DNA of 41,406 bases, from assembly GCA_964347715.1 (NCBI GenBank), contig CAYGAO010000001.1, positions 1-41,406 on the forward strand, in the 5' to 3' direction. Source of the DNA: an uncultured Acidobacteriota bacterium. Its GTDB lineage: Bacteria; Acidobacteriota; Vicinamibacteria; Marinacidobacterales; Marinacidobacteraceae. The notes under the pieces are model-generated. The model made no database searches and was not told the DNA's origin. It saw nothing but the letters and a program-made list of their open reading frames with translations. Positions within the stretch are counted from its first letter, which is position 1; every line of letters begins with the position of its first letter. Shown piece after piece: positions 543-35,791 of this stretch. Position numbers and translations under genes: made by a program.

Positions 543-1583
543 ATGACCCGGATCCCGATCCCCGGAGGGGCCGGCCTCGCCTTCTTCGGCATCCGGGACC
601 GGAACCTCCGCTCGATCGAGGAGGACCTCGGGCTCTCGCTGTCGAGCCGCGGCGATGTGCTGCTCGCTTCCGGCCCGGAGGACCGGATGGCGCTCCTCGA
701 AGCCGCGCTCTCCGGGCTCGCGGCGCTCCAGCCGGATCTGGGCCAGCGCTGCCGGATCGGCGATGTGCGCGCCGCGATCCGGATCCTGGGGCAGGATCCG
801 GGGGCGTCGCTCCGGGAGTACTTCGTCGAAACGGTGGTCACTCCCTCTCCGGGCAAGACGGTCCGCCCCAGGAGCCTCCGCCAGCTCGAGTACCTCCGGG
901 CGATCCGGTCCCGGGATCTCGTCCTCGCGGTCGGGCCCGCCGGAACCGGCAAGACCTGGCTGGCGATGGCGGTTGCGGTCGAGGCGCTCCGCGCCCAGCA
1001 GGTTCGCCGGATCGTGCTCACCCGGCCGGCGGTCGAGGCCGGCGAGAAGCTCGGGTTCCTCCCGGGCGATCTGATCGACAAGGTGGATCCCTATCTCCGT
1101 CCGCTCTACGACGCCCTCCACGACATGATGGATGCGGAGAAGGCGCAGCGGCTGCGCGAGCGCGGCGTGATCGAGATCGCCCCGATCGCGTTCATGCGGG
1201 GCCGGACGCTGAACGACGCCTTCATCATCCTCGACGAGGCGCAGAACACCACCTCGGAGCAGATGAAGATGTTCCTCACCCGGATGGGGAACGGCACTCG
1301 CGCGGTGGTGACCGGCGATATCACCCAGAACGACCTGCCGCCCGGGCGGGTCAGCGGGCTCGTCGAATCGCTGGAGGTGATCGGCGATCTCGACGGGGTG
1401 GGGCTCGTCCGGCTCGGGGAGAGCGATGTGGTCCGCCACCGGCTCGTCCAGGCGATCGTGCGCGCCTACGCGCGGAGCGAGAAGGCGAGAACGCGGCTTC
1501 GGAGCGCACCGGAGCGGGGGACGGTGGCGGGTGCTCCGGAACGCTGGCGCGAGCCCGCGCTCGCGGCCTCCGAGCCGGTCTGA
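543..1583 (+). CDS. phoH: PhoH-like ATPase (YbeZ family)
   Basis: Frame of ORF 492..1583. Walker A is GPAGTGKT. PhoH-type blocks are present: RIVLTRPAVEAGEKLGFLPGD, PLYDAL, IAPIAFMRGRTLNDAFIILDEAQN, VVTGDITQ. ATG 543 is preferred; GTG 492 is the alternative start. Confidence 0.93.
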   Translation: MTRIPIPGGAGLAFFGIRDRNLRSIEEDLGLSLSSRGDVLLASGPEDRMALLEAALSGLAALQPDLGQRCRIGDVRAAIRILGQDPGASLREYFVETVVTPSPGKTVRPRSLRQLEYLRAIRSRDLVLAVGPAGTGKTWLAMAVAVEALRAQQVRRIVLTRPAVEAGEKLGFLPGDLIDKVDPYLRPLYDALHDMMDAEKAQRLRERGVIEIAPIAFMRGRTLNDAFIILDEAQNTTSEQMKMFLTRMGNGTRAVVTGDITQNDLPPGRVSGLVESLEVIGDLDGVGLVRLGESDVVRHRLVQAIVRAYARSEKARTRLRSAPERGTVAGAPERWREPALAASEPV

Positions 1584-1792
1584 CAAGCTGTGGAGAAAGT
1601 CCCTCGCGCGCCGACGCGGCGCGAAGCGCCGCCGGGGAGGGTTCTCCCTCCCCGCGAAAGACGGCGGAACGGATCGCGCAAGCGATTCGGGCCGCCATCC
1701 GGTGGGGGAAGCGCCCCGCATCCGCCCGGACGACGGAGTTCCCCATCGCTTCGAGGACGGATTCCCATGCGGGTCGTCTCATCCACAGGCTG
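1584..1792 (+). mobile_element. MITE-like structured repeat, copy 2 (complete, 209 bp)
   Basis: Terminal inverted repeats are CAAGCTGTGGAGAAAGTCCC and GGA..ATCCACAGGCTG. Direct CTGA repeats flank it at 1580-1583 and 1793-1796. It fills the whole phoH/pgpH spacer. Confidence 0.9.
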
Positions 1793-1800
1793 CTGAGCGG

Positions 1801-4086
1801 GTGATCTCCCCCGAAGGCGCCTCGCCGGCGCCACCCGCCCGAGAGCGCGCCGGGCGTCTTTCGCGGGTTTCGCTTCGGAGCGCCCTGCGGCGTTCGCAGG
1901 ACGCGCTCTTCTCCCGCACCGACTGGGTGGGCGGGCTGCTGGTGGCCGCGATCGGCCTCCTCCTCTGGCCGGACCTCGGTTTCCAGACGCCGCTCTACGA
2001 GGTCGGCGAGATCGCCCCGCGCACCGTCCGCGCGAGCGCCGACTTCACCTACGAGGATGCGGCGGCCACCCGCGAGCGGCGCCGGGAGGCGGTCGAACTC
2101 GTTCCGGATGTCTATGACTTCGACGCCCAGGCCCGCGAGCAGGCGCGGGGGCGGATCGCCCGGGCGTTCGCCTTCGGCCGCGCGGCGATCGCCTCGGGGG
2201 CGCACGAAGAGTCCGACTTCGCCGCGACGGTCTCCCGGCTGCTCGACGCCGAGGTGACCGCTCCCCAGCTCGATCTGCTCACCGCCTCGGGGTTCGCCGA
2301 CGAGGTGCGGCAGAACCTCGCGGATTCGGTGGCGAGCGTGCTCGCGCGCGACATCATCGAGGGAAAGGGAGCGCTCGCCGCGCTCGGTCGGCCGATCCGG
2401 CGCCGCGATCTCTCGACGGGAGCGTCGGTCGCGCTCCGGGACTACTCGAACGTGCTCTCGCTCGAGGAAGCGAGGAGCGCGGTCGAACTCCAGATCCTCG
2501 CGCTCTCGGAGCTGGCCAGCGGCCCCCGGCGCACCCTCGCCGAGCTCGCCGCCGCGCTCGTCCGGCCCACCCTGGAGCGGAACGCGGTGGAGACCACGCG
2601 CCTCCGCAGCGAGGCCCAGCAGGCGGTGGATCCGGTGGTCATCCAGGTGCGCCGCGGGCGGACCGTCGTCCGGGCCGGCGACGAGGTCACCGGGCTCGCC
2701 CGCCGCCAGCTGGAGGAGATGCGGTCGCCCGAGTCCGGCAGGTCCGGGTGGGCCGGCCTCGGGGCCCTCCTCTTCGCGTTCATCGTGGTGGCGCTCCTCC
2801 GCGTCCTGCTCCGACCCGCGCGGTCCGCCGAGCGCTGGGTCGGGCGCACGTTCGCGATGGGCGGCGCGGTCATCGCGCTGCACCTGGCGCTCACCCGGAT
2901 CCTCGGTTTCGTGAGCCGGGGGGCGGCGGCGCAGCTGGTGAGCGAGCCCTTCTCCGACCCCTCGGTCTATCTCTGGGTGATTCCGTTCGCCTCCGCCGCG
3001 CTCCTGATGGTGATCCTCGAGAACGAGGAGTCGGCGGTGGTCACCCAGGCGCTCTTCGCCGCGGCGCTCTCGATGATGACCGGGAACCCGATCCTCGGCC
3101 TCTTCGCGCTCCTCGGCGGCCTGGGCGCGATCTTCATCTACCGCCGCTCGGGGCCCGGGGCGTCGTGGATCCGGGTCGGGGCGCTGTTCGGCCTGATGGG
3201 GGCGGGACTCGTGATCGCGATCGAGCTCGTGGGCCGGGACTACGGGGGGTTTCCCCGCCTGCTGCTCGAGGCCGCGAGCGCCTTCACCGGCGGCCTGCTG
3301 GTGGCCCCGTTCGTCATCCTGCTGTTGCCGCTCTTCGAGAACCTCTTCGAGCGCACGAGCGAGATGCGGCTCATGGAACTCGCCAGGCGGGACAACCCGC
3401 TCCTGCGCCAGCTCGCGCTCAAGGCCCCCGGGACCTACCAGCACAGCGTCACCGTGGGCCTCCTCTCCGAATCGGCCGCCGACGCGATCGGCGCGAATTC
3501 CTCGTTCTGCTCGACCGCCGCGCTCTATCACGACATCGGCAAGCTGAACCGCGCCCGCTACTTCGTCGAGAACGCCGGCGGCGCGACGCCGCACGACGCG
3601 CTCTCGCCGGAAAAGAGCGCCGAGATCATCAGGAAGCATGTCACCGAGGGGATCGAGGCCGCCGAGCGCCTGAATCTCCCGAAGGATGTCGTGGATGTGA
3701 TCCCCCAGCACCACGGCACCAGGATCATCCGGGTGTTCTGGGAAAAGGCGAAGCAGCGCGCGGCCGCGACCGGGGAGATGCCCGACGAGGCGCTCTTCCG
3801 CTACCCCGGGCCCCGGCCCCAGACCCGGGAGGCAGCGATCATCATGGCCGCCGACAGCATCGAGGCCGCCGCGCGCAGCCTGAAGGACCCGACCCGCGAG
3901 AGCTTCGAGCGGGTGATCGACCGGATCATGGACTCGATCGTCGGGGACGATCAGTTCGGCGAGTGCGACCTCACCCTGAGCGACCTCGAACGGATCCGCG
4001 GCGCCTTCCTCTCGACCCTGCTCGCGATCCACCACGAGCGGCTCCCCTACCCGGGGTTCGACTTCGGGCGGCGGCGCCATGGCTGA
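1801..4086 (+). CDS. pgpH: 7TM-receptor HD-domain phosphohydrolase (PgpH/YqfF family)
   Basis: Frame of ORF 1426..4086. GTG 1801 is the first start after the repeat element. It has an extracellular N-domain, multiple TM helices, then the HD motif YQHSVTV...ALYHDIGK and HHG. Confidence 0.88.
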   Translation: MISPEGASPAPPARERAGRLSRVSLRSALRRSQDALFSRTDWVGGLLVAAIGLLLWPDLGFQTPLYEVGEIAPRTVRASADFTYEDAAATRERRREAVELVPDVYDFDAQAREQARGRIARAFAFGRAAIASGAHEESDFAATVSRLLDAEVTAPQLDLLTASGFADEVRQNLADSVASVLARDIIEGKGALAALGRPIRRRDLSTGASVALRDYSNVLSLEEARSAVELQILALSELASGPRRTLAELAAALVRPTLERNAVETTRLRSEAQQAVDPVVIQVRRGRTVVRAGDEVTGLARRQLEEMRSPESGRSGWAGLGALLFAFIVVALLRVLLRPARSAERWVGRTFAMGGAVIALHLALTRILGFVSRGAAAQLVSEPFSDPSVYLWVIPFASAALLMVILENEESAVVTQALFAAALSMMTGNPILGLFALLGGLGAIFIYRRSGPGASWIRVGALFGLMGAGLVIAIELVGRDYGGFPRLLLEAASAFTGGLLVAPFVILLLPLFENLFERTSEMRLMELARRDNPLLRQLALKAPGTYQHSVTVGLLSESAADAIGANSSFCSTAALYHDIGKLNRARYFVENAGGATPHDALSPEKSAEIIRKHVTEGIEAAERLNLPKDVVDVIPQHHGTRIIRVFWEKAKQRAAATGEMPDEALFRYPGPRPQTREAAIIMAADSIEAAARSLKDPTRESFERVIDRIMDSIVGDDQFGECDLTLSDLERIRGAFLSTLLAIHHERLPYPGFDFGRRRHG

Positions 4087-4612
4087 GCCGGAGGCGACGG
4101 CGGGGCGTCCGGAAGCGGGCCGGGGCCGTGACGACCGCCCTCCGGAACCGCCGTCCCCGGAGTTCACGGTCGAGAACCGACAGGACCGTTTCGTCGTGGA
4201 CCGGCGTCCGCTCGAGGCCCTGCTCGCCCGGGTGGCCGCGGAGGTGGCGCCCGAGGATCCGCGGGGCGCGACGCTGCGCATCGTCTCCGACCGGGACATC
4301 CGGGAGCTGAATCGCCGCTACCGGCGTCTCGACCGGGCGACCGATGTGCTCGCCTTTCCGGCGAGCCCGCCGCCGCCCGGGGTCGCCCCCGAGGAAGCCG
4401 CCTACCTCGGGGATCTGGTGATCTCGGCGGAGACCGCGGCCCGGCAGGCGGCGGCAGCCGGGCGTCCGCTAGGCGCGGAACTCGGCGCGCTCGCGGTGCA
4501 CGGCCTGCTCCACCTCGTCGGGTACGACCACGAGCGCGACCGGGGCGAAATGGTCCGGCTCGAGCGGCTGCTCTGTCTCCGCCACGGGCTCGCCGGAGGA
4601 ACCGCCGGGTGA
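4079..4612 (+). CDS. ybeY: rRNA maturation endoribonuclease YbeY
   Basis: Zinc motif HGLLHLVGYDHE. It sits in the conserved phoH-ybeY-corC-era neighbourhood and overlaps the upstream stop by 8 nt. Confidence 0.93.
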   Translation: MAEPEATAGRPEAGRGRDDRPPEPPSPEFTVENRQDRFVVDRRPLEALLARVAAEVAPEDPRGATLRIVSDRDIRELNRRYRRLDRATDVLAFPASPPPPGVAPEEAAYLGDLVISAETAARQAAAAGRPLGAELGALAVHGLLHLVGYDHERDRGEMVRLERLLCLRHGLAGGTAG

Positions 4613-5868
4613 CCGCGCTCTTCGTGGGGTTGCTCCTGCTCGCCGTCGCGCTCGTCGTCCTGTTCGCGGTCTTCGAGGTCGCGTTCTTCGCCTCGGGCCC
4701 GATCGCGGTGCGGGCGCTCGGGAGCGAGGGAGAGCAGGCGCGAGCGCTGCGCGAGCGCCTCGCCGATCCGCTCGCGGTGCTGATTCCGGCGCGCTTCGGC
4801 CTGCTCGTCGCCGCCGGCCTCGTGGTCGTCGCCCTCGCCGGCCTCGGGTTCGGGCTCACCCCCGGGTGGTGGATCCCGGGGGTGTTCCTGCCCGCGTGGT
4901 TCCTCGTCCGCGAGGTGGCGCCGGCGGCGATCCTGCTGCGCGACTCGGAGGAGGTGCTCCGCGGGCTGCTTCCTTGGTTCCGCGGCTGGGAGCGGATCGC
5001 CCGCCCCGGATCGGAGGCGCTCCGGCGGCTCCTCCGCCGCGCCGTCCCGCTCGTCGAGGAGGCCGGCGACGACGCCTCCGAAGAAGAGGTCGAGGCCTTT
5101 CTCGAGACCGGCGAGGAGGAAGGCATCCTCGAAGAAGAAGAGGCGGCGATGGTTCGGGGCGTCCTCGATCTCGACGAGATGCTCGTCCGCGAGGTGATGA
5201 CCGCGCGCCCGCATGTGGTCTCGGTTCCCGGAGGGGCGTCGCGCGCCGAGGTGGAGCGGCTGATCTCCACGAGCCGGCACCACCGGATTCCGGTCTTCGG
5301 GAACCAGGACCAGGTGATCGGGGTCGTGGACGCCGTGGATCTGGTCGCGGCGCCGCCCGCTACCGGAGAGCCCGAGCCGCCGCTCCGGAAGCTCCCGCTG
5401 CGGCGGGTCCCGGTGGTGCCCGAGACGAAGCGGGTGGACGATCTGCTGCGCGAGTTCAAGCTCGCCAAGGAGACCTTCGCCGTCGTGGTGGACGAGCACG
5501 CGAGCGTCTCCGGGATCGTGACGCTCCGCGACATCTCCGGGGAGATCGTGGGCGAGGTGCGCGAGGACGGCGGGCCCGAGGAAGCGGATCTGGTCGCCGA
5601 GGGAGAGGGTTCGTGGGTGGTCCGTGGCGAGGCGGAACTCGCCGAGGTCTCGCGCGCCACCGGTCTCGACCTCCCGGACTCGCTCGACGGGGCGGCGTTC
5701 GACACCGTTTGCGGCCTCGTCCTCGCCGCCTGGCAGCGGATTCCGGAGGTCGGCGAGGTGATCGAGCGCGACCGGGTCGCGTTCGAGATCCTCGAGGCCG
5801 ACGAGCGGCGCGTCCACCGGGTGCGCCTCCGCCGCGCCCCCCGCCCGGCCGGGCCGGCGACGGGCTGA
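4609..5868 (+). CDS. DUF21/CBS-pair/CorC_HlyC membrane protein (hemolysin-TlyC / CorC family)
   Basis: N-terminal TM helices, a CBS region (VMTARPHVVSV..., HHRIPVF, VIGVVD) and a C-terminal CorC-type domain. It overlaps the ybeY stop with GTGA. Confidence 0.88.
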   Translation: MTALFVGLLLLAVALVVLFAVFEVAFFASGPIAVRALGSEGEQARALRERLADPLAVLIPARFGLLVAAGLVVVALAGLGFGLTPGWWIPGVFLPAWFLVREVAPAAILLRDSEEVLRGLLPWFRGWERIARPGSEALRRLLRRAVPLVEEAGDDASEEEVEAFLETGEEEGILEEEEAAMVRGVLDLDEMLVREVMTARPHVVSVPGGASRAEVERLISTSRHHRIPVFGNQDQVIGVVDAVDLVAAPPATGEPEPPLRKLPLRRVPVVPETKRVDDLLREFKLAKETFAVVVDEHASVSGIVTLRDISGEIVGEVREDGGPEEADLVAEGEGSWVVRGEAELAEVSRATGLDLPDSLDGAAFDTVCGLVLAAWQRIPEVGEVIERDRVAFEILEADERRVHRVRLRRAPRPAGPATG

Positions 5869-6777
5869 GTGGAGCCCACAGCCCCCTCCGGGCGCCGGGC
5901 GGGATTCATCGCCCTCGTCGGCCTCCCCGGCGCGGGGAAGTCGACGCTGCTGAACCGCCTGGTGGGCGATCGGCTCGCGATCGTGAGCCCGAAGCCGCAG
6001 ACGACCCGGCGGCGGATCCTCGGGGTCGCGAGCCGTCCGGGGCTCGAGATGGTCCTGCTCGACACTCCCGGGATCCACCGGCCCCGGACCGGCCTCGGGC
6101 GGGCGATGATGCGGACCGTCACCGAGAGCCTCGGCGGCGCCGAGGTGGCGCTCTTCGTCGTGGACGGGACGCGGCCGGCCTCGCGGGAGACCCGGGACCT
6201 TCTCGCGCGGCTGAACGCGCTGCGGGGGCAGGGGGTCGTCGGGATCAACAAGACCGACATCGCCCCCGCCTCCCGGGTCCGGGCGCTCACGGACTTCTGC
6301 CGCGAGCGAACGCCGGGGCCGATCGTCGCCTTCTCGGCGCGGACGGGAGCGAATGTGGAAGGCGGCGGGTCGCTCGTGGGGATCCTCGGGAGCCTCCTGC
6401 CCTTCAGCCCGCGACTCTTCCCGGAGGGGCAGATCACGGACCTTCCGGATGCCTTCTTCGCCTCGGAGATCGTGCGCGAGCGGATGCTCGCGAACCTCCA
6501 TCAGGAGGTCCCCCATCACGGGGCGGTGCGCATCGAGGCCTACGACGACTCCGAGCCCCTCGTCCGGATCGCCGCCTCGCTGCTCCTCGACCGGGATTCG
6601 CAGCGCGGAATCGTGATCGGCAAGGGCGGCCGGATGCTGAAGCGCATCGGGACCGAGGCGCGCCGCGCGATCGAGAAGCGGCTCGGTCGGCGGGTGTTCC
6701 TCGGTCTCCAGGTCAAGGTCCGCTCGGGCTGGCGCGACAACCCCGGCATCCTGCGGGACCTCGGGATCCAGCCCTGA
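5869..6777 (+). CDS. era: GTPase Era
   Basis: G1 motif GLPGAGKSTL, then SPKPQTTR, G3 motif DTPGIH, G4 motif NKTD, and a C-terminal KH domain (GIVIGKGGRMLKRIG). Confidence 0.95.
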   Translation: MEPTAPSGRRAGFIALVGLPGAGKSTLLNRLVGDRLAIVSPKPQTTRRRILGVASRPGLEMVLLDTPGIHRPRTGLGRAMMRTVTESLGGAEVALFVVDGTRPASRETRDLLARLNALRGQGVVGINKTDIAPASRVRALTDFCRERTPGPIVAFSARTGANVEGGGSLVGILGSLLPFSPRLFPEGQITDLPDAFFASEIVRERMLANLHQEVPHHGAVRIEAYDDSEPLVRIAASLLLDRDSQRGIVIGKGGRMLKRIGTEARRAIEKRLGRRVFLGLQVKVRSGWRDNPGILRDLGIQP

Positions 6778-6916
6778 CCGGCGGCGCACCGGGCGCGGGG
6801 CCTCGTCCACCGCCTGCCGGCGCCGAGCGGCGACGGCCGGACCCCGAGGCGGCCGGGTCGGACGCCGGCGCCCCGCGATCCGCTTCGATCCGCGCCGCCG
6901 TTTCCGACGGAAATCC

Positions 6917-7517: not shown

Positions 7518-8084
7518 ATGGTTCCGAGCGTTGCGTCCCCGGCTCCCGGAGTGGAGGTGCGGGCCGAGGTGGTCGTCGGGCGGGTGGTCCGGCCCTGCGG
7601 ACGTCGCGGCGAAGTCGTCGTCGACCCGCTGACCGACGATCCGGCGCGGTTCTTCGATATCGAGACCGCCGAGGTCGGCGTTCCGGGGGCGGACGGGGTT
7701 CGCCGTTCGCTCGAGTCCGTCCGGCTCCATCGGGGCCGTCCGGTAGTCCGGTTCTCCGGGGTCGGGGACATCGGCGCCGCCGAGGGTCTCCTCGACATGG
7801 AGATCCGGATCCGCGCCTCGGAGCGAGCGCCGCTCGCGGACGGCCGCTTCTATCAGGACGACCTGATCGGCTGTCGCGCCGAGAGTGGCGGCGGCGAACC
7901 TCTCGGCGAGATCGTCGGAGTCGAGGACACCGCGGGTCCCTGCCTGCTCGTCCTGCGCGGCGAGGACGGATCCGAGGACCTGGTTCCGTTCGTCGAGGCG
8001 TTCTGCGTCTCGGTGGATCCCGCTTCCCGCCGGCTGGTCCTGGATCTGCCGGCGGGCCTTCTGGGGCTGAACCGTGCGCGTTGA
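7518..8084 (+). CDS. rimM: 16S rRNA processing protein RimM
   Basis: VVVGRVVRPCGRRGEVVV...F followed by a PRC-barrel-like C-terminus. It holds the conserved rpsP-rimM-trmD-rplS position. Confidence 0.88.
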   Translation: MVPSVASPAPGVEVRAEVVVGRVVRPCGRRGEVVVDPLTDDPARFFDIETAEVGVPGADGVRRSLESVRLHRGRPVVRFSGVGDIGAAEGLLDMEIRIRASERAPLADGRFYQDDLIGCRAESGGGEPLGEIVGVEDTAGPCLLVLRGEDGSEDLVPFVEAFCVSVDPASRRLVLDLPAGLLGLNRAR

Positions 8085-8844
8085 CATCCTGACCCTGTTG
8101 CCGGGGATGTTCGGCGAGGTCTTCGACCACGGCATCGTCCGGCGGGCGCGCCGCGCCGGCCGGCTCGACATCGAGGTCCACCCGCTCACCGGGTGGACCG
8201 ACGGGCGCTTCCAGCGCGCGGACGACGCGCCCTACGGAGGCGGCCCCGGGATGGTGCTGCGGGTGGAGCCGCTCCTCGGCGCCGTGGAGGACATCCGCGC
8301 CCGGGACCCCCGTCCGCCCCGGGTGATCCTCCTCTCGCCGAGAGGCCCCCGGCTCGGCCAGGAACTCGCCGGCGAACTCGCGCTCGAGTCGCGGCTGCTG
8401 CTCGTCGCCGGCCGCTATGGAGGCGTGGACGAACGCTTCCTGGCGCTCGGCGACGCCGAGGAGCTCTCCGTCGGCGACTATGTCCTCTCGGGCGGCGAGA
8501 TTCCGGCGATGGTCCTCGTGGACGCGGTCGCCCGGCTGCTTCCCGGCGCTCTCGGAGATCCGGAGTCGGCCGCCGGGGACTCGTTCGCCGACGGACTGCT
8601 CGGGCACCCCCAGTACACCCGCCCGCCGGTGTTCCGGGGGAGCCGGGTTCCCGAGGTGCTGCTCTCGGGAGACCACGAAGCGGTGCGGCGGTTCCGTCTC
8701 GGGCAGTCGCTCGCGCTGACCCGCCGCCGCCGCCCCGACCTCTTCCGGGCCCATGTCGGAGGAGCCGGCGCCGATGGATCCGCGGTCGCCCCGGTCGGCG
8801 CGCCGGCCGCGAGCGACGACGAACGACAGGAGGACCCCTCATGA
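8074..8844 (+). CDS. trmD: tRNA (guanine37-N1)-methyltransferase TrmD
   Basis: MRVDILTLLPGMF..., DDAPYGGGPGMVL, LLVAGRYGGVDERF, SVGDYVLSGGEIPAMVLVDAV. Confidence 0.95.
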   Translation: MRVDILTLLPGMFGEVFDHGIVRRARRAGRLDIEVHPLTGWTDGRFQRADDAPYGGGPGMVLRVEPLLGAVEDIRARDPRPPRVILLSPRGPRLGQELAGELALESRLLLVAGRYGGVDERFLALGDAEELSVGDYVLSGGEIPAMVLVDAVARLLPGALGDPESAAGDSFADGLLGHPQYTRPPVFRGSRVPEVLLSGDHEAVRRFRLGQSLALTRRRRPDLFRAHVGGAGADGSAVAPVGAPAASDDERQEDPS

Positions 8845-9278
8845 GTGTGAGCCAGACATCGGAGGCGCCGGAACCGGAGCCGTCCGCGGAGGACCGGGCC
8901 GCCGGGCCGGGACCCGTTCCGCCGCGACCCGGCGGCGAGGTGATCCGGGAACTCGAGCGAGCGGAACTCCAGTCCGGCCGTCCGGACCTCCGCCCCGGCG
9001 ATGCGATCCGGGTCCACGCCACGATCCGCGAAGGAGACCGCGAGCGGATCCAGGTGTTCGAGGGCATCCTGATCGCGATGAAGCACGGCGGGAACCGCCG
9101 CACCCTCACCGTGCGGAAGACCTCCTTCGGGGTGGCCGTCGAGCGCATCTTCCCGTTGCACTCGCCGCTCGTGGCCCGGATCGAGATCGTCCGCTCCCAC
9201 CACACCCGGCGCGCCAAGCTCTACTTCCTCCGGAAGCGGAAGGGGAAGGCGGCGCGGCTCCGCGAAAAGCGCCGCTGA
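8841..9278 (+). CDS. rplS: 50S ribosomal protein L19 with ~35-aa acidic/proline N-terminal extension
   Basis: ATG 8841 overlaps the trmD stop (ATGA), with AGGAGGA just upstream. Core sequence is RPGDAIRVHATIREGDRERIQVFEGILIAMKHGGNRRTLTVRK...GVERIFPLHSP. Confidence 0.93.
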   Translation: MSVSQTSEAPEPEPSAEDRAAGPGPVPPRPGGEVIRELERAELQSGRPDLRPGDAIRVHATIREGDRERIQVFEGILIAMKHGGNRRTLTVRKTSFGVAVERIFPLHSPLVARIEIVRSHHTRRAKLYFLRKRKGKAARLREKRR

Positions 9279-9410
9279 CCCGCCGGCGGGCTCCCACTGC
9301 TGTCCGGGCCTCGAAGCGTTCCCGGCTCGCCGGAACGCCCCGTCTGCTGTGCGATCGTCCCGGTTCGCGGGCTCACGCCGGCCCGGCTGCGGGCGCTCGC
9401 GGCCGTCGGC

Positions 9411-9977
9411 GTGGACTTCTTCCAGGTGCGGGACCGCGAGGCCACGGATGCCGAGCACGAGAGGTTCCTGACCGACCTCGGCGACGAAGCCCCGGAGATC
9501 CTTCCTCGCGTCCTCGTGAACGATCGGCTGGCGCTCGCCGCCACCTTCCCGGTGGCGGGGGTCCACCTGCCCGAGGCGGGCCTCCCGGTCCGGGCGGTGC
9601 GCTCCCGGTACCCGCGCGGGCGGCTCCTCGTGGGGCGATCCGTCCACGGGGCGGCCGCGGCGGCGGCGGCGGCCCGGGAAGGGGCGGACTACCTGATCCT
9701 GGGGCCGATCCACGAGACCGGGGGCAAGCGCCCGCTGCCGCCGGGAGCGCCGGGCGAGATCGCGCGGGCGGTCCCCGTTCCGGTGTGGGCGGTCGGCGGC
9801 CTGACCCCCGAGAACCTCGACCGGCTCCGGGGCGCCGGAGTGTCCGGAATGGCGGCGATCCGCGCCTTTCGGGACCCGCCCGCGGCAGCCGCCTTCGTCG
9901 CCAGCGCGCGGCGGCGGTTCCCCGGACTCCGGCCCTCGCGAGCGACGGTTCCGGTGCGACCGGCCGCTCCAGAATGA
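9411..9977 (+). CDS. Thiamine-phosphate synthase family protein (ThiE/TenI-like); true start probably upstream of the first canonical start
   Basis: GVDFFQVRDRE, GVHLPE, VGRSVH, GADYLILGPI, VPVWAVGGL. The conserved N-terminal part (LCAIVPVRGLTPARLRALAAVG) lies in frame at 9279..9410, where only CTG codons are available as starts. Confidence 0.6.
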   Translation: MDFFQVRDREATDAEHERFLTDLGDEAPEILPRVLVNDRLALAATFPVAGVHLPEAGLPVRAVRSRYPRGRLLVGRSVHGAAAAAAAAREGADYLILGPIHETGGKRPLPPGAPGEIARAVPVPVWAVGGLTPENLDRLRGAGVSGMAAIRAFRDPPAAAAFVASARRRFPGLRPSRATVPVRPAAPE

Positions 9978-9996
9978 TCCGGAGAACCTGGTTCCC

Positions 9997-11559
9997 ATGA
10001 TCGCTGGCGGGCGGCGGGCGGCGGCGCTCTTCGTCATCCTCGGCGCGCCGCCGCTCTTCGCGCAGCCGGAGAGCGAGCTCGATCGCGCCGCCGAACGGCG
10101 GTTTCGCAGCGCCGAGCAGTTCTACGCGGTCGGACGCCACACCCAGGCGCTCCGCGACTTCGAGGCGATCGTCGAGGCGATGCCCGGCAGCCGGCTCGCC
10201 GACGACGCGGCGCTCCGGATCGCCCGCCACCGGTTCGCGGTCGAGGGCGACCCGGCGGCGGCGGAGGCGGCGCTCGACCGGCTCTTCCGCGAGTACCCGG
10301 CCGGCGACGCCGTCCCGGGCGCGCATCTGCTGCTCGGGCAGATCGCGCTCGCGAGCGTGCCGCCCCGGCCCCTCGATGCGCTCGCCGAGTTCGAGCGGGC
10401 GCTCTCCGCCGCGGGATCCCCCAGGTCCCGCTGGTCGTTCGCGGCGCTGACCGGGATCGCCGAGGTGTCCTGGGACTTCGCCGACGACGCGCAGGCGGCC
10501 GGGGCGCTGCTCGCCGCGCTCCACGAGACCAGCCCGGACCCGGGCTCCGAGCCGGACCGCCTCGCGGCGCGGTTCTTCCTCGCCCGCGCTCTGGCCCGCA
10601 GCCGCGCCCTCGAGGCGGCGCTCGCGGAGATCGCGAGCCTGCGCGCCGATCTGCTCCGCCTCGAGCGGCGCCCGACGCCGGACCCCGAGGCCAACGGCTT
10701 CTCTCCCGCGGCGCTCGCCGACCGCGCGAGCGACCTCGCGGCGCTGATCGAGCGCTACCGGGCCCCCGGTGGTCCCGACTGGAGGGTCGCCGGAGCGGTC
10801 TCGCCGCCGCGGCGTCTCGACGATCCGCGTCGCGTCCGCTTCGCGGGCGGGCTGATCCATGTGCTCGACCAGGACACCGACGAGCTCCAGAGCTTCACCA
10901 CGGCGGGGGACTTCCAGGGGGCGCTCGGGATCGACGACCCCCGGGACCTCGTGTTCGCGGACCGGTCGGGCGCCTCCGCGGCCCTCGCCCCGCTCGCGGT
11001 GGTGGCGGCGGGGGACACGCTCGTCGTGGACGGGAACCCGATGCGCCTCGCGGTTCCCGAGGGCGGGAGCTCCGAGCCGCTGCGGCGGATCCGGGCGGCG
11101 GCGGTCACCCCCTTCGGCTTCTGGGTGTGGGACGACCGGGAGAAGGCCGTCTTCTCCTTCGCCAGGTCGGGCCTCTTCCTCGGACGGGTGCCGCATCCCG
11201 AACTCGACCGGGTCCGGCGGATCGCCCGCCACCCGGCCGGGCGCCTGATCGTCGCCACGGAGAAGCAGGGGGTGCTCGGGTTCGACGCGACCGGCCGCCG
11301 GATCTTCCACCTGTCCCGGCAGGGCGGGGTCGAGGAGCCGGTGGATCTCGCGTTCGACGGGCTCGGAAACCTGATCGTCCTCGGCCGCGACGAGCCGGTG
11401 ATCGCGGTCTTCGACCGCGACTTCGCCCATCTCGCGACCCTCGCCGGCGCTGGCTGGCCGGGCGGTTCCCGCCGCGAACCGGTCTCGCTCGATGTCGGCC
11501 CCGACGGGAGCCTGTTCGTGCTCGACGAAGGCGCCCGCGCGGTGCTGGTGCTGCGATGA
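9997..11559 (+). CDS. Secreted TPR (YbgF-like) plus NHL/beta-propeller repeat protein
   Basis: Signal-like N-terminus AALFVILGAPPLFAQP. TPR-like helices. C-terminal repeats of NHL type: GNLIVLGRDEPVIAVFD and DGSLFVLDEGARAVLVL. Confidence 0.7.
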   Translation: MIAGGRRAAALFVILGAPPLFAQPESELDRAAERRFRSAEQFYAVGRHTQALRDFEAIVEAMPGSRLADDAALRIARHRFAVEGDPAAAEAALDRLFREYPAGDAVPGAHLLLGQIALASVPPRPLDALAEFERALSAAGSPRSRWSFAALTGIAEVSWDFADDAQAAGALLAALHETSPDPGSEPDRLAARFFLARALARSRALEAALAEIASLRADLLRLERRPTPDPEANGFSPAALADRASDLAALIERYRAPGGPDWRVAGAVSPPRRLDDPRRVRFAGGLIHVLDQDTDELQSFTTAGDFQGALGIDDPRDLVFADRSGASAALAPLAVVAAGDTLVVDGNPMRLAVPEGGSSEPLRRIRAAAVTPFGFWVWDDREKAVFSFARSGLFLGRVPHPELDRVRRIARHPAGRLIVATEKQGVLGFDATGRRIFHLSRQGGVEEPVDLAFDGLGNLIVLGRDEPVIAVFDRDFAHLATLAGAGWPGGSRREPVSLDVGPDGSLFVLDEGARAVLVLR

Positions 11560-25603: not shown

Positions 25604-25813
25604 CCGGCGGTGGTGAAAGTCCCCCGGGGCGCAGACGCGGCGCGGAGCGCCGCCGGGGAGGGTTCCCCCTCCCCGCGAAAGACGGTGGGGCGAATCGCGG
25701 AAGCGATTCGCCCCACCTGCCCGTGGGAAGAGTGCCCCGCATCCCCGAATCGGGTTGGATTCCGGTTCCCTTCCCGAAGCGGTGCGGATGCGGGGGACTT
25801 TTTCCACGGGCTG
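25604..25813 (+). mobile_element. MITE-like structured repeat, copy 4 (complete, divergent subfamily, 210 bp)
   Basis: It has the same order of hairpins as the other copies. The termini are near-perfect inverted repeats: GGTGGTGAAAGTCCCCC and GGGGGACTTTTTCCACGGG. The inner stem is changed in a compensatory way (GGTGGGG...CCCCACC). Confidence 0.85.
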
Positions 25814-25818: not shown

Positions 25819-26931
25819 TCAGAGCCCGATGCGGGCGAGCCCGGAGGCCACGACCGGCGACGGCAGCGGGAAGGACACCACCGCTCGTCCCCCGTCGCTC
25901 TCCTGCCGCGCGCTGCCGATCGCCCGCAGCACGACGAACCGGGGCTCGCCACCGCGCGCCTTCTTGTCGCTCGCCATCGCGCGCACCACGGCGGCGCGGT
26001 CCATCCCGCCTCCGGCGCGGCGGGGCAGCCCGAGCGACGCGACCGCGGCCTCGAGCCGCGCCTCCGCCGTGGCGGCGAGGAAGCCCGCCTCCCGCGCCAT
26101 CCGGCTCTCCGCGATCATCCCGATCGCCACCGCGGCGCCGTGGGGGAGCCGGTAGCCGGACGCGCGCTCGAGCCCGTGGCCGACGGTGTGCCCGAAGTTC
26201 AGCACCTCGCGGAGCCCGGCTTCGTGCTCGTCCGCCCGGACCACCGCGGCCTTGATCCGGACGCTCGCCGCGATCAGCCGGGTGAGCGCCGCGTCCTCGC
26301 CGGCGAGGAGCTTCTCGACGCTTCCCTCGATCTCGGCGAAGAACGCCCGGTCGCTGGTCGCGGCCATCTTGAGCGCCTCGGCGAGCCCGTTCCGGAGCTC
26401 GGCCTCCGGAAGCGTGGCGAGGAGCGCGGTTTCGGCGAGCACCGCCGCCGGCTGGCGGATCACCCCGATCCGGTTCTTCCCGTGCCCGGTGTTCACCCCG
26501 ACCTTCCCCCCGACCGACGCATCCACCGCGGCGAGAAGCGTCGTCGGCGCGGCCACGAAGGGCACCCCCCGCAGCCAGGTCGCGGCGACGAAGCCGGCCA
26601 GGTCCGTCGCCACCCCGCCGCCGAAACCGAGGATCACGGTGTCCCGCCCGAGGCGGAGCGATGCGAGCTCGTCCTCGAGGCGTTCCTTCTCGGCCCGGGT
26701 CTTCGTCTCCTCGCCGGAAGGAACCTCGAGGACCGGGGTCTTCGCCGGGAGCACGGAGGCGAGGCGCTCCCGGTGGAAGCCGAGCGCCCCGGCGTCGGCG
26801 ATGACGGCCACCCGGCGCCCGCCGAAGCGCCCGGCGAGCAGCGCCGGCAGCGCGTCGAGCGCCGCCGGCCCGACGAGGATCTCGTAGGCGGTGTCCCGCC
26901 CCGGTGTCTCGACCGGGACGCGGGTCGTCAC
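25819..26931 (-). CDS. aroB: 3-dehydroquinate synthase
   Basis: GTG 26931 overlaps the DAHPS stop (GTGA). LGFGGGVATDLAGFVAATWLRGVPFVAAPTTLLA.VDASVGGK, NFGHTVGH. Confidence 0.93.
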   Translation of the reverse strand: MTTRVPVETPGRDTAYEILVGPAALDALPALLAGRFGGRRVAVIADAGALGFHRERLASVLPAKTPVLEVPSGEETKTRAEKERLEDELASLRLGRDTVILGFGGGVATDLAGFVAATWLRGVPFVAAPTTLLAAVDASVGGKVGVNTGHGKNRIGVIRQPAAVLAETALLATLPEAELRNGLAEALKMAATSDRAFFAEIEGSVEKLLAGEDAALTRLIAASVRIKAAVVRADEHEAGLREVLNFGHTVGHGLERASGYRLPHGAAVAIGMIAESRMAREAGFLAATAEARLEAAVASLGLPRRAGGGMDRAAVVRAMASDKKARGGEPRFVVLRAIGSARQESDGGRAVVSFPLPSPVVASGLARIGL

Positions 26932-28609: not shown

Positions 28610-28639
28610 CGGGAGCGAGGTGGGGCCGTCAGGCGTCAG

Positions 28640-28848
28640 CAGCCGGTGGACGAGGCGCCCCGCAGGGGAATCCGTCCTCGAAGAGATGGGGAACCCCGTC
28701 GTCCGGGCGGATGCGGGGCGCTTTCCCCACCGGATGGCGGCCCGAATCGCTGGCGCGATCCGCTCCGCCCTCCTTCGCGGGGAGGGAGGACCCTCCCCGG
28801 CGGCGCTTCGCGCCGCGTCGGCGCCTGAGGGACCTTCTCCACAGCCTG
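28640..28848 (-). mobile_element. MITE-like structured repeat, copy 5 (complete, 209 bp)
   Basis: Direct TCAG repeats at 28636-28639 and 28849-28852. The right one contains the trpE stop codon. The element sits between trpE and trpG. Confidence 0.9.
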
Positions 28849-30360
28849 TCAGGCGAGCCCCGAGTGGGCCATGCGGAGCGCGGCCAGCACCGCGTCCGCC
28901 TTCCGGCAGCTCTCCTCGTACTCGGCGGCCGGGTCCGAGTCGGCGACCACGCCCCCGCCGGCCTGGAAGGTGCCGATCCCGTCCTGCGCCACCAGGGTGC
29001 GGATGGCGATCGCGGTGTCGGAGGCGCCGCTGTAGGAGAAGTACCCCACCGCCCCGCCGTACACCCCGCGTCGCTCGCCCTCGAGATCCTCGATGATCTC
29101 CATCGCCCGGATCTTGGGCGCTCCCGAGAGCGTGCCGGCGGGAAAGGTGGCGCGCAGGCAGTCGAAGGCGTCGAGCCCGGGGCGCACCCGGCCCCGGACC
29201 CGCGAGACGAGGTGCATCACATGCGAGTAGCGCTCGATGCTCATGAAGTCCTCGACCTCGACCTGGCCGTAGCCGGCGACGCGGCCGACATCGTTCCGGG
29301 CGAGATCCACGAGCATCAGGTGTTCGGCGCGCTCCTTCTCGTCGGCGAGGAGCTCCCCGGCGAGCCGGGCGTCCTCCCCGGGGGTGCGCCCCCGGGGGCG
29401 GGTGCCGGCGATCGGGCGGGTCTCGACCGCGCCCGAGGCGGTGCGGGTCATCATCTCGGGGGAGGCGCCGGCGACCACGAGGCCGCCGAAATCGAGGTAG
29501 TACATGTAAGGAGAGGGATTCACCACCCGGAGCGCCCGATAGAACCCGAACGGGTGGACGGACATCGGCGTCCGGAACCGCTGCGAGGGGACGACCTGGA
29601 TGATGTCGCCGGCGGCCACATGCTCCTTGGCGCGGCGCACCATCTCGAGATATCCGGCGCGGGTCCGGTTCGACTCCGGTTCCGGGAAGGACGCGTTCGC
29701 CGCCCGGACCTCGCGCTCCGGTAGCGGCGCCCGCAATTCGGCGACGGCGGCGGCGATCCGCGCCTCGGCCTCGTCGAAGGCCGCATCCGCCGCCCTCGGA
29801 TCGGGGACGCGCGCGTTCGCCACCACCTGGATCACGTTCCTCGCCCGGTCGAAGACGAGGACCGTGTCGGTGAGCAGGAAGGCGGCGTCGGGCAGCCCGA
29901 GCGGGTCCGCCGCGGTCTCGGGCAGCCGCTCGAAACGGCGCGCGGCGTCGTAGCCCAGGTAGCCGACGAAACCCCCGTGGAACGGGGGCAGCCCCTCCAC
30001 CGGCGCCGGGCGGACCTCGGCGAGCATCTCCCGCAGCACCTCGAGGGGATCGGCGTTCGGGAGCGCCTCGGTCCGGCCCTCCCGGAGAAAGCGGCGCCGG
30101 ACCTCGTTCCCCCGGCTCTCCACGAGGACCAGCGGGTCCGATCCGAGAAACGAGTAGCGTGCGACCGCCTCGCCCCCTTCGACGGATTCCATCAGGAAGG
30201 CCGGGCCGCGGTTCCCCACCCGGAGGAAGGCGGAGACCGGGGTGTCGCAGTCGGCGAGGATCTCCCGGCGGACCGGGATCAGGTTCCCCCGGCGGGCGAG
30301 CGCCCGGAATTCGGAGCGCGACGGAACGAGCGGCGGATCGGACGCGGTGGCGGCAGGCAC
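28849..30360 (-). CDS. trpE: Anthranilate synthase component I
   Basis: LIPVRREILADCDTPVSAF, a C-terminal chorismate-binding domain, GTLSGAPKIRAMEII, GGAVGY. Confidence 0.94.
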   Translation of the reverse strand: MPAATASDPPLVPSRSEFRALARRGNLIPVRREILADCDTPVSAFLRVGNRGPAFLMESVEGGEAVARYSFLGSDPLVLVESRGNEVRRRFLREGRTEALPNADPLEVLREMLAEVRPAPVEGLPPFHGGFVGYLGYDAARRFERLPETAADPLGLPDAAFLLTDTVLVFDRARNVIQVVANARVPDPRAADAAFDEAEARIAAAVAELRAPLPEREVRAANASFPEPESNRTRAGYLEMVRRAKEHVAAGDIIQVVPSQRFRTPMSVHPFGFYRALRVVNPSPYMYYLDFGGLVVAGASPEMMTRTASGAVETRPIAGTRPRGRTPGEDARLAGELLADEKERAEHLMLVDLARNDVGRVAGYGQVEVEDFMSIERYSHVMHLVSRVRGRVRPGLDAFDCLRATFPAGTLSGAPKIRAMEIIEDLEGERRGVYGGAVGYFSYSGASDTAIAIRTLVAQDGIGTFQAGGGVVADSDPAAEYEESCRKADAVLAALRMAHSGLA

Positions 30361-32224: not shown

Positions 32225-32335
32225 CGGGCTGTGGAGAACGTCCCTCGCGCGACGACGCGGCGCGGAGCGCCGCCGGGGAGGGTCCTCCCTCCCTGCGAAA
32301 GACGGCGGAACGGATCGCGCAAGCGATTCGGGGGC
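32225..32335 (+). mobile_element. MITE-like repeat, copy 6 (left arm only, forward)
   Basis: It matches the first ~110 nt of the family, up to the GGATCGC-GCAA-GCGATTC hairpin, and then diverges. The outer flank is CTAG (32221-32224). Confidence 0.85.
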
Positions 32336-32479
32336 CTCGCCTCCGGCGAGAAGCCGCGAGACGCTCCTGCCCGGCGCAGGGCGTCGCCGCAGGGGAGGGT
32401 TCCCGAAGAAAGCCGCCGCCCCGAGGGGCGGCGCCGGGGATCGGCCCGGAGAGATCGCCGCCCCCTCCGGCGCGGCCAC

Positions 32480-32491: not shown

Positions 32492-33382
32492 ATGCGCCAT
32501 CTCCCGCTTCTTCTCGCTCTCTTGTGGTCGACCTCCGGCGGCGCGGCCCCGCAGTCCGAAGACGCCGAACGCCGGATCCTGGAGCACATCCGCGACACGA
32601 TGCAGCCCGGCGAGCGCGTCCTGCTCTCCCCGCTCGTCGAGCGCTTCCAGGCTCCCGACGAGCAGCGCGCCCTCGACCGGCTGAACGATGTGTTCTTCCG
32701 GATGCCGCTCTTCATCGTCGAGTTCGAGGGCCGGGAGGGGCGGCTCCCCTCGCTCGCCGAGGTCTCCGGCCAGTTCTCGCTCTACGGCGAGGAGGCGGCC
32801 GACATCGTGCTCCGCATCATGGAATCCGATCCCCGCGTCCCGAAGTTCCTCGTCCGGGACGGGCAGGGCGCGCTCGTCTCGATCGATCAGGATCTGGTGC
32901 GGGCGGACGAGCGGTTCGCGCGCGCGGTGAGCCGCAGCCTGACCGGTTGGGAAGGGCGGACGCTCCCCGAGATCGCCGGCGAGCGCTTCGGCGGCGGCGA
33001 GGCGGCGGTGGCGGACCTGATGGAAGACGCCACCCTCGTCTATGTGTGGTTCACGGATTGTCCGCCCTGCGTCCAGATCGCTCCGGTTCTCGGAGCCCTC
33101 CACCGGGATCTCGCCGGCGACGGGCTCCGCATCGTCGGGCTGAACGCCGACCGGGTGCTCAAGCTGCCCTACACCGACGAGGACCGCGCGGCGCGTCAGG
33201 AGAAGGCGGGGGTGAGCTTCGAGAACCTGCACCTGACCGACGAGGCGAGGGCCGCGCTCGGGAACGTGAACATCTTCCCGACCCTGTTCCTCGCCCGGCG
33301 GGACGGGACGATCGTCCGCCACTTCGTGAACTTCCAGCCGCGCGAGACGCTCGAACCCGCGATCCGGGAACTCCTCCCGTAG
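32492..33382 (+). CDS. Secreted TlpA-like thioredoxin-fold protein (CPPC) with N-terminal domain of unknown function
   Basis: Signal peptide MRHLPLLLALLWSTSGGAA. C-terminal thioredoxin fold: VYVWFTDCPPCVQIAPVL...IVGLNAD...FPTLFLARRDG. Confidence 0.8.
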   Translation: MRHLPLLLALLWSTSGGAAPQSEDAERRILEHIRDTMQPGERVLLSPLVERFQAPDEQRALDRLNDVFFRMPLFIVEFEGREGRLPSLAEVSGQFSLYGEEAADIVLRIMESDPRVPKFLVRDGQGALVSIDQDLVRADERFARAVSRSLTGWEGRTLPEIAGERFGGGEAAVADLMEDATLVYVWFTDCPPCVQIAPVLGALHRDLAGDGLRIVGLNADRVLKLPYTDEDRAARQEKAGVSFENLHLTDEARAALGNVNIFPTLFLARRDGTIVRHFVNFQPRETLEPAIRELLP

Positions 33383-33385
33383 CAG

Positions 33386-33498
33386 GGCGGCCCGAATCGC
33401 TTGCGCGATCCGTTCCGCCGTCTTTCGCGGGGAGGGCGGACCCTCCCGGGCGGCGCTTCGCGTCGCGTCGGCGCGCGAGGGACTTTCTCCACAGCCTG
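33386..33498 (-). mobile_element. MITE-like repeat, copy 7 (left arm only, inverted relative to copy 6)
   Basis: Its reverse complement matches the first ~113 nt of the family and breaks at almost the same internal point as copy 6. The outer flank is GTAG (33499-33502). Confidence 0.85.
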
Positions 33499-33548
33499 GT
33501 AGCGCGCCGGGGCGCCGTCGCCCCCGGCGCGTGACCGCGCTCCGCGTC

Positions 33549-33577
33549 TTGACAAGGGTTCACTCACATCTTATACT
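33549..33577 (+). promoter_or_regulatory. dnaK promoter TTGACA-17 nt-TATACT with overlapping partial HAIR-like (HspR operator) sequence
   Basis: TTGACA at 33549-33554 and TATACT at 33572-33577, in a locally AT-richer stretch. CTTGACA-N7-ACTCACA at 33548-33568 matches 10 of 14 positions of CTTGAGT-N7-ACTCAAG. Confidence 0.6.
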
Positions 33578-33645: not shown

Positions 33646-35571
33646 ATGAGCAGGATCATCGGCATCGACCTCGGCACCACGAACTCGGTGGTCGCGGTGA
33701 TCGAGGGCGGCCAGCCCACGATCATCCCGAACGCCGAGGGTGGGCGGACCACCGCTTCGGTCGTGGGCATCTCGAAGTCGGGCGAACGGCTCGTCGGCGA
33801 GGTGGCGAAGCGGCAGGCGATCACGAACCCGAAGAACACGGTCTTTTCGATCAAGCGGTTCATGGGGCGGCGCTTCGACGAAGCCGCCTCGGAGCGCGAC
33901 CAGGCCCCCTACGAGATCCGCAGGAAGGACGACGGCGGGGTCGAGGTCGAGATGGGCGACAAGCGCTACACCCCGCCCGAGATCTCGGCGATGGTGCTCC
34001 AGAAGATGAAGTCGTCCGCCGAGAAGTACCTCGGCGAGACCGTCGAGCGGGCGGTGATCACCGTGCCGGCCTACTTCAACGACTCCCAGCGCCAGGCGAC
34101 GAAGGACGCCGGCGAGATCGCCGGGCTCGAGGTCGTCCGGATCGTGAACGAGCCGACGGCCGCCGCGCTGGCCTACGGGCTCGAGAAGCAGAAGAGCGAG
34201 AAGATCGCCGTGTACGACTTCGGCGGCGGCACCTTCGACATCTCGATCCTCGAGGTGGGCGAAGGGGTCGTCGAGGTGCGTTCCACGAACGGCGACACCT
34301 ACCTCGGCGGCGACGACCTCGACAAGCGGGTCATGGACTGGATCGTCAGGGAGTTCCGGAAGTCGGACGGGATCGATCTCGGCGCCGACCGGATGGCCCT
34401 CCAGCGGCTCCGGGATGCGGCGGAGAAGGCGAAGGTCGAACTCTCGACCACCCACGAGACCGAGATCAACCTGCCGTTCATCACCGCGGACGCTTCGGGC
34501 CCGAAACATCTCACCCTGACGCTCTCGCGCTCGAAGCTCGAGGCGCTCATCGGGGACCTCCTCGAACGGACCCGGAAGCCCTGCCTCCAGGCGCTCGAGG
34601 ACGCGGGCCTCCGGAACGACTCGGTGGACGAGGTGGTGCTCGTCGGCGGCACCACGCGGATCCCGCGCGTCCAGGAGCTCGCGAAGGAGATCTTCGGCGC
34701 CGAGCCCCACCAGGGGGTGAATCCCGACGAGGTGGTGGCGCTCGGCGCCGCGATCCAGGCCGGGGTGCTCGGCGGGGATGTGAAGGATCTGCTCCTCCTC
34801 GATGTGACCCCGCTCTCGCTCGGCATCGAGACGCTCGGCGGAGTCTTCACCCGGCTGATCGAGCGGAACACGACGATCCCGCACAAGGCGAACGATGTGT
34901 TCTCGACGGCGAGCGACAACCAGCCCCAGGTGGAAGTCCATGTGCTCCAGGGCGAGCGGTCCATGGCGTCGGACAACCGCACGCTCGGCAAGTTCACCCT
35001 GACCGGGATCCCGCCAGCGCCCCGCGGGATGCCGCAGATCGAGGTCACCTTCGACATCGATGCGAACGGCATCGTGAACGTCTCCGCGAAGGACCGGGCG
35101 ACCGGCCGCGAGCAGGCGATCACGATCACCGCCTCGAGCGGCCTCACGAAGGAAGAGATCGAGACGATGAAGCAGGAGGCGTCCCGGAACGAGGAAGCCG
35201 ACAAGACCCGCCGCGAGGAAGTGGAGTTCCGGAACGAGACCGATTCGCTCGTCCACCAGGTCGAGAAGCTCCTGAACGAGAACCGCGACAAGGTCGAGGA
35301 ACCCGACCGCACCCGGATCGAGAGCGCGATCTCGACGGCGCGGGCCGCGCTCGCCGGAGACGACCTCGACAAGATCCGCGCGGTCCGCTCCGAGGTGGAG
35401 TCGGCGAGCCACCGACTCGCCGAGGTCATGTACCAGAAGACGGCGGCGTCCGCGCCGGGCGAGGCCGGAGCCGACGCGCCGCCGCCTCCGCCGCCGCCGC
35501 GACGGAAGAAGAGCAAGGGGAACGGCGCCGCGGACGACATCATCGACGCGGAGGTCGTGAACGACAGCTGA
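33646..35571 (+). CDS. dnaK: Chaperone DnaK (Hsp70)
   Basis: [23 protein letters not shown] (here [11 protein letters not shown]), [17 protein letters not shown] lies upstream of ATG 33646. Confidence 0.97.
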
Positions 35572-35774
35572 CAGCCGGTGGATAGAGCGCCCTGCATGGG
35601 AATCCGTCCTCGAAGAGATGGGGAACCCCATCGTCCGGGCGGATGCGGGGCGCCTTCCCGACAGGATGGCGGCCGGAATCGCTTGCGCGATCCGTTCCGC
35701 CCGCTTTCGCGGGGAGGGAGGACTCTCCCCGCACCCCTCCGCGTCGGCGCGCGAGGGACTTTCTCCACCGCCTG
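35572..35774 (-). mobile_element. MITE-like structured repeat, copy 8 (complete, 203 bp; net 6 nt shorter than the 209-bp copies)
   Basis: Direct CTGA repeats at 35568-35571 (this one includes the dnaK stop) and 35775-35778. The element sits between dnaK and dnaJ. Confidence 0.9.
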
Positions 35775-35791
35775 CTGAGGCGCTGGCGGCG

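Follow-up and report, generated by a model that had tools for sequence, protein, structure and literature searches.

A family of miniature inverted-repeat elements with 4-bp target-site duplications, often at stop codons, in a GC-rich Acidobacteriota genome

Repeat copies and their flanking duplications

The window analysed here is a stretch of 41,406 nt (contig CAYGAO010000001.1) from an uncultured Acidobacteriota bacterium, with a G + C content of 73.6%. Between its genes, among them phoH, aroA, aroB, trpE, dnaK and dnaJ (identified by Pfam or by translation), we recognized nine copies of one repeat, which we describe as a transposable element of the miniature inverted-repeat kind (MITE). 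The copy density was ~1 per 4–7 kb, core operons included. All nine copies matched a core pattern of 31 specified (degenerate) bases, whose chance expectation was 0. Scanning GTDB genomes with this pattern gave at least two loci, from one Vicinamibacterales metagenome-assembled genome with this family, which assigns the window to that lineage of Acidobacteriota, and the JGI metagenome contigs gave 0 matches. When a protein database was queried with the concatenated six-frame translation of the element, 76 predicted proteins containing translated MITE sequence were found. The protein matches led to seven extra loci of the same lineage (L007 to L013), in which copies were listed by profile search. 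A sister contig, L003, represents a strain 98.8% identical to the window.

The long form of the element measured 203–221 nt, and deletion-derived short forms ~116 nt. Uniformly oriented, the element starts with CAGCCKGTGGA and ends with TCTCCACMGCCTG, forming imperfect inverted repeats of ~16–20 nt. In all full copies, CAGSCNGTGGAKAAAG begins both ends in inverted orientation, and the terminus consensus of the family is CAGSCNGTGGA. No protein family was attached to the copies and coding capacity of their own was absent; all frames are open in the MITE only because of the high GC content. In an alignment of 22 full copies (A3), two subfamilies were recognized, with compensatory changes in four hairpins, and a 12–13-nt CCCTCCCCGCAC indel distinguished copies. 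The element is predicted to fold very stably (about −115 kcal/mol). With respect to their flanking genes, copies pointed either way, inside operons too. Many are within operons, where they would be transcribed together with the genes. Rfam at gathering threshold matched no repeat in the window, its sole match being a tRNA at 20863–20935, and a search for terminator-like signals inside the copies found none.

The flanks were compared in 25 independent copies with both ends, drawn from the window and from contigs related to it. In 11 of the 25, the element is directly bordered by a direct repeat of exactly 4 nt; eight different sequences occurred: TCAG (four times), CTGA, CTAT, GTAG, TCAA, CCAA, CTAC and TTCA. 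Seven further copies matched at three of the four positions. In eighty shifted registers there were 0.18 matches on average and 2 at most, and after shuffling of left and right partners 0 of 20,000 permutations reached 11. Repeat lengths from 2 to 7 nt other than 4 gave zero matches in the 25 copies. Relative to the orientation of the element, the tetramer was found as CTGA and as TCAG. Since it differs from copy to copy, agrees on the two sides of a copy and is found in both orientations, it is duplicated host sequence and not part of the element. These results strongly support the flanking repeats as target-site duplications.

A sequence-only reading of the window had already reported perfect CTGA/TCAG repeats around copies 2, 5 and 8, enclosing the stop codons of phoH, trpE and dnaK, and all of its coordinates were exact (Table 1). 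For copy 3, its TCAT/TCAA flanks with a 3/4 match and its placing of the aroA stop were confirmed by coordinates, Pfam and translation. It had interpreted the direct repeats as target-site duplications and had asked whether a consistent 4-bp duplication would appear in a wider tabulation of flanks. This was the case, with 11 of 25 copies against the control mean of 0.18, a length of exactly 4 bp and agreement within copies that differ from each other; the parent insertion sequence (IS) described below duplicates 4 bp as well. Copies 7 (GTAG/GTAG, holding a TAG stop) and 9 (ATAG/ATAG) are cases beyond those reported before. The proposal that the duplication leaves the upstream stop intact also held. 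At dnaK–dnaJ, a copy of the GAGG that overlaps the right repeat of copy 8 (CTGAGG), 11 nt ahead of the dnaJ ATG (35792), also stays before dnaJ.

In several of the copies with a 3/4 match (copy 3, a copy in L009 and the one at 18289 in L013) one flank copy holds the stop of a gene. The 3/4 cases are at most compatible with later decay of the unconstrained flank copy. In L003 at ~5010 (window 28637–28655), copy 5 has lost its left terminus and some of its duplication through a 19-nt deletion, which shows ongoing decay of the termini.

Other interpretations were rejected. A 3-bp TNA duplication would call for one more base, now on one side of the element and now on the other, and the test at a length of 3 gave zero matches. 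The tetramers are not an extended inverted repeat, as they are direct and variable between copies. An insertion of the IS200/IS605 type would have no inverted termini and no duplication and would lie 3′ of a fixed tetranucleotide in one orientation, whereas inverted termini, duplicated flanks and both orientations were seen. REP/REPIN sequences are short, imperfect palindromes of ~20–40 nt without duplication and are linked to RAYT genes, whereas this element has ~210 nt, a duplication and a DDE partner; RAYT genes were not searched for.

Table 1 Repeat copies, adjacent genes and gene ends in the window (nt positions).
Feature	Position	Strand	Remarks
Copy 1	1–116	+	right part of MITE, cut by window start; right flank TGAA
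phoH	492–1583	+	stop 1581–1583
Copy 2	1580–1796	−	long-form MITE 1584–1792; CTGA at 1580–1583 and 1793–1796; phoH TGA in left repeat
Solo terminal-repeat fragment	6794–6816	−	MITE left terminus, reverse complement CAGGCGGTGGACGAGGCCCCGCG; 17 nt past TGA stop of open reading frame (ORF) 5869–6777
Copy 3	24087–24303	+	MITE 24091–24299; TCAT 24087–24090, TCAA 24300–24303 (3/4 match); aroA stop in right flank
aroA	24300–25592	−	stop 24300–24302
Copy 4	25604–25813	−	diverged subfamily; flanks CCAG / CTCG, no recognisable duplication
aroB stop	25819–25821		5 nt from end of copy 4
Copy 5	28636–28852	+	MITE 28640–28848; TCAG at 28636–28639 and 28849–28852; trpE stop in right repeat
trpE	28849–30360	−	stop 28849–28851
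Copy 6	32225–32343	−	short, truncated; between divergent SLH-like and AhpC-like genes (divergent promoter region); intact end abuts CTAG
AhpC/TSA-like gene	32492–33382		TAG stop within left duplication of copy 7
Copy 7	33379–33502	+	116-nt short form 33383–33498; GTAG/GTAG; TAG stop in left repeat
dnaK	33646–35571	+	stop 35569–35571
Copy 8	35568–35778	+	MITE 35572–35774; CTGA at 35568–35571 and 35775–35778; dnaK stop in left repeat
AAA-ATPase gene TGA stop	41243–41245		4 nt upstream of copy 9 ATAG
Copy 9	41250–41406	−	runs off window end; ATAG 41250–41253; far end and second ATAG seen in L003

The solo terminal fragment is probably the remnant of a tenth copy. A 17-nt unit, GAAGATCGCCGGGGCCC, is repeated perfectly in tandem (3.8 copies, 118–182), beginning one nucleotide past the right end of copy 1. 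Between copy 7 and dnaK there is a strong promoter-like site (TTGACA-17-TATACT, 33549–33577), conserved in relatives. ARAGORN called a 93-nt tRNA-Ala(ggc) at 29595–29687, inside trpE on the opposite strand; it has no Rfam match and is likely a false positive.

Two of the related loci showed larger duplications that involve MITEs. L009 carries two identical MITEs with identical flanks at 9930–10150 and 10564–10784, 634 bp apart, and a phosphodiesterase gene has its stop in the right TCAG; the pair arose by tandem duplication or is an artefact of assembly. In L013, an IS of the IS1634 family (transposase 8231–9928) is flanked by a direct duplication of >140 bp (7965–8105 and 10110–10255), which takes in 122 nt of MITE together with the stop of the DsbH-like gene next to it.

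An autonomous insertion sequence with the same termini, and the sites in relatives

An intact IS of 1,496 bp, with ends CAGCCTGTGGAGAAAG and CAGCCCGTGGACGAAG, was located in L014 (9958–11453), within an amidohydrolase gene and flanked by ATAG/ATAG. Its transposase (P0198, 476 aa, intact), found by homology search, has DUF772 and DDE_Tnp_1 domains and a weak match to DDE_Tnp_1_6. The IS and the MITE have nothing but their termini in common, and eleven IS and MITE ends align. Degraded IS copies with termini matching the MITE, reached through one protein match bearing a transposase domain, were present in L007 (10143–11891) and L009 (end at 3584), both broken by nested insertions. The insertion nested in the L007 copy is a MITE, sitting at CTGA, and the L009 copy is empty at that point: L009 reads ...ATC CTGA CGGG..., and L007 reads the element followed by CTGA AGGG.

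That the L007 IS copy had lost 1.3 kb by deletion was considered and rejected, as it is the L009 copy that carries an insertion, of IS1380. Beside the nested MITE, the degraded L007 copy contains a run of >30 G (10190–10220), which is real or else an artefact of long reads at homopolymers. In L014, 4 kb from the intact IS, there is a type I-C cas operon (Cas5d, Csd1, Cas7, Cas4, Cas1 and Cas2) at 535–5912.

By DnaK, the nearest relatives are either 100% identical or 86% or less. Those at 83–84% DnaK identity keep the gene order trpG–trpE ... SLH-like gene, AhpC-like gene, dnaK, dnaJ, and have zero copies of the 209-nt family in 22 kb each. Their dnaK ends with AACTGACGG, which has one CTGA only, and their trpG–trpE spacer is 33 nt long. 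At the position of copy 6 the site is empty and reads GAGTCTAT. The alignment there breaks exactly at the end of the element, the relatives having GAGTCTA followed by T and the window GAGTCTAG followed by the element. For the comparison with empty orthologous sites that the sequence-only reading had suggested, the relatives thus offer the single CTGA at the dnaK stop and the exact breakpoint at copy 6; the spacers have otherwise diverged, so that these sites are supportive and are not clean empty sites.

The relatives without the 209-nt family carry another MITE family with related termini (CAGYCCGTGGAYAAAG). Its copies were seen at ~9700–9963 and 8461–8660 in L005 and at equivalent positions in L006, one of them just upstream of dnaK.

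Target motif, stop codons and competing explanations

The stop-codon statistics are based on eight loci, in which 124 genes were called and 26 kb is non-coding. TGA made up 85% of the stops, and a C preceded 48% of the TGA stops. Sites reading CTGA/TCAG numbered 614 in coding DNA, 124 in non-coding DNA and 49 at stops, the harmless ones thus being 173. A complete stop codon falls within only 0.9% of the harmless 4-mer positions, and 28% of the harmless CTGA/TCAG sites are at stops. Weighted by the observed duplication tetramers, about 18% of insertions are expected at stops.

Stop-holding duplications were found in nine of 23 copies overall, far above the uniform expectation of 0.9% (P = 3e-13) and also above the motif-weighted one (P = 0.015). 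In the window they were found in 5/8 (P = 3e-9 against uniform and 0.007 against motif-weighted). Outside the window, 4/15 copies still exceeded the uniform expectation (P = 8e-6) and fitted motif preference alone (P = 0.28). The enrichment at stop codons, for which the sequence-only reading had proposed a test, is real against a uniform background, and in the copies outside the window it matches the prediction from the motif.

Among the copies not at stops, CTGA/TCAG or CTAN/NTAG was found in 7/15, compared with a background of 0.9% (P = 3e-11). Their sites include a divergent promoter region, the inside of another IS, a position abutting a start codon and one in frame inside a gene; the parent IS, too, is inside a gene. 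As these copies keep the CTGA/CTAN motifs, it is the transposition machinery itself that prefers these sequences. The C-TGA stop context, put forward earlier as the specific target, was too narrow, with GTAG, ATAG, CTAC, TCAA, CCAA and TTCA being duplicated as well. The alternative offered with it, that only such insertions survive selection, appears to apply as well: 78% of the CTGA/TCAG sites are inside genes, yet only one in-gene MITE was seen. The motif bias persists away from stops. The link with stop codons is thus mostly motif preference combined with selection, the motif and not the stop codon itself being the target.

The in-gene copy (L010, 10579–10799) lies in frame in an AAA_14/DUF4143 ATPase gene (P0133), to which it adds ~75 residues and no stop. 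In two other predicted proteins, the cupin-like P0125 and the RsmB-like methyltransferase P0128, the host ORF continues through an entire MITE and is thereby extended by ~70 aa at the C terminus.

Taken together, we consider it very probable that the repeats are a MITE family with a 4-bp duplication, mobilised in trans by an IS5/IS1182-like transposase with a YTRN-type target motif, and kept out of genes by selection. The DDE transposase of the ~1.5-kb IS would act on the MITEs in trans, and its 4-bp staggered cut would give rise to the 4-bp duplication flanking each insertion. Its preferred target would be a loose tetranucleotide, YTRN, with CTGA commonest by far, then NTAG/CTAN and TTGA. In a genome with 74% GC and 85% TGA stops, about half of them after C, a quarter or more of the harmless CTGA sites are stops. 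Selection would remove insertions at the far more numerous in-gene sites. An insertion at a nucleotide plus stop codon would be neutral, with the left duplicate keeping the stop and the right one keeping whatever overlapped it. Of all this, the termini, the 4-bp duplication, the parent IS, the intrinsic preference for the motif and the lack of the family in relatives were seen directly in the data, whereas mobilisation in trans and the part played by selection are inferred.

Several observations weigh against this explanation. In seven of the 25 copies, just 0–2 of the four flanking positions match. Transposition itself was not observed, and the strain with 98.8% identity keeps every copy, which leaves no clean filled-versus-empty pair between near-identical strains. 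The best NCBIfam match of P0198 was IS1182 (NF033551), with 168 bits, below the curated cut-off of 270, and the IS5_4 model gave 105 bits with a cut-off of 140; the Pfam domain set does agree with IS1182, but since neither cut-off was reached, the parent is called IS5/IS1182-like only. The compensatory hairpin changes between the subfamilies hint at a constraint that a plain selfish element does not need, and could reflect either transposition or RNA structure. Finally, the stop association in the window exceeds the motif-weighted expectation. This excess could come from an extra preference or selection for exact stop sites, or it may be due to tightly packed operons or to the window having been picked for this pattern.

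A broader idea, to which we give a small probability, is that tetramers of pyrimidine plus stop (YTGA/YTAG) serve as a genome-wide safe harbour in high-GC genomes, to the use of which the IS5/IS1182-like transposase and the MITEs have become adapted, some copies then perhaps gaining RNA functions in 3′-untranslated or intercistronic regions. If true, the stop, and a ribosome-binding site where one overlaps it, would be restored by the 4-bp duplication, and a very high density would be possible even in essential operons, such as dnaK–dnaJ, trpE–trpG, the aro genes and the atp genes.

The transposase could have evolved to recognise stop contexts, a pyrimidine plus TGA/TAG at gene ends, as a targeting strategy towards safe havens. 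The window agrees with this: apart from the five of eight copies holding a stop, two more are within 5 nt of one, more than the motif-weighted null predicts, and a YTRR motif covers all three stop codons. The window was, however, chosen for its pattern, the copies outside it fit motif preference alone, and insertions within a gene, within an IS and in promoter regions make use of these tetramers too. In addition, we know of no means by which DDE transposases sense a reading frame. We therefore regard stop recognition as improbable.

A structured RNA or DNA element with a function that places it after stop codons, for instance a stabiliser of 3′-untranslated regions or a REP-like sequence, the tetramers forming part of it, would account for the local hairpins with compensatory changes, the stable fold and the many copies inside operons. 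The missing Rfam match, the lack of terminator-like signals inside the copies and the use of both orientations relative to the flanking genes do not fit such an element, nor do tetramers that are variable and direct instead of inverted. Its termini are, moreover, common to an autonomous IS, and the family is absent from the relatives at 83–84%. We judge this origin very unlikely, and individual copies may have been exapted secondarily. Least credible of all is sequence-random insertion, with survival only at exact stops or in neutral spacers and selection alone making the CTGA/TAG pattern: the near absence of MITEs from genes agrees with it, whereas the motif bias of the non-stop copies and the use of ATAG and CTGA by the parent IS and the nested MITE, both off stops, speak against it.

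Comparison with known mobile elements

The preferred explanation, a MITE family with an IS partner, adds a high-density family and its autonomous IS5/IS1182-like partner to a poorly studied lineage of soil Acidobacteriota. It illustrates cleanly that a transposon can seem to target stop codons through the joint effect of a short target motif and an extreme base composition, while the 4-bp duplication makes the insertions harmless. For annotation, the consequence is that gene callers fuse MITE copies to real genes, creating false N- or C-terminal extensions in database proteins.

In the searchable literature, neither this MITE family nor MITEs with a bias for stop codons were described, and nothing directly relevant was found on the target rules of IS1182 or on repeats of Vicinamibacter. 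This silence is weak evidence for novelty.

The RUP elements of pneumococcus, which go with IS630-Spn1, and the Correia/NEMIS elements of Neisseria are bacterial MITEs mobilised by resident IS (PMC2229807). The family described here resembles Correia and RUP in being small and non-coding, in having inverted termini shared with an IS and a short target duplication, and in its high copy number, with mostly intergenic copies often co-transcribed in operons. It differs in being GC-rich instead of AT-rich, in its variable 4-bp duplication (CTGA, NTAG and others) instead of TA, in its IS5/IS1182-like instead of IS630-like partner, and in its host, an Acidobacteriota lineage of Vicinamibacterales type.

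The IS5 group of the IS5 family makes 4-bp duplications at YTAR/CTAG-like targets, and its termini typically begin with GG. The parent IS shares with this group a transposase with DUF772 and DDE_Tnp_1, the 4-bp duplication and targets with a central T-purine, including NTAG. Unlike the group, it has IS1182 as best profile, below the cut-offs, CTGA as commonest target, and termini that begin with CAG.

The REP elements of Escherichia coli are structured intergenic repeats linked to RAYT, often located a few nt from an upstream stop and inside operons. They have no such terminal inverted repeats and no target duplication, whereas here the adjacency to stops follows from the insertion target. The palindromic elements of Rickettsia, which insert in frame within genes, resemble the in-frame copy in L010, which is a single case, the MITE family being overwhelmingly intergenic. 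Set beside these systems, the repeats are typical of bacterial MITEs that have a partner IS, and form a new family of this known kind; their occurrence at stop codons is real and is ordinary transposon behaviour.

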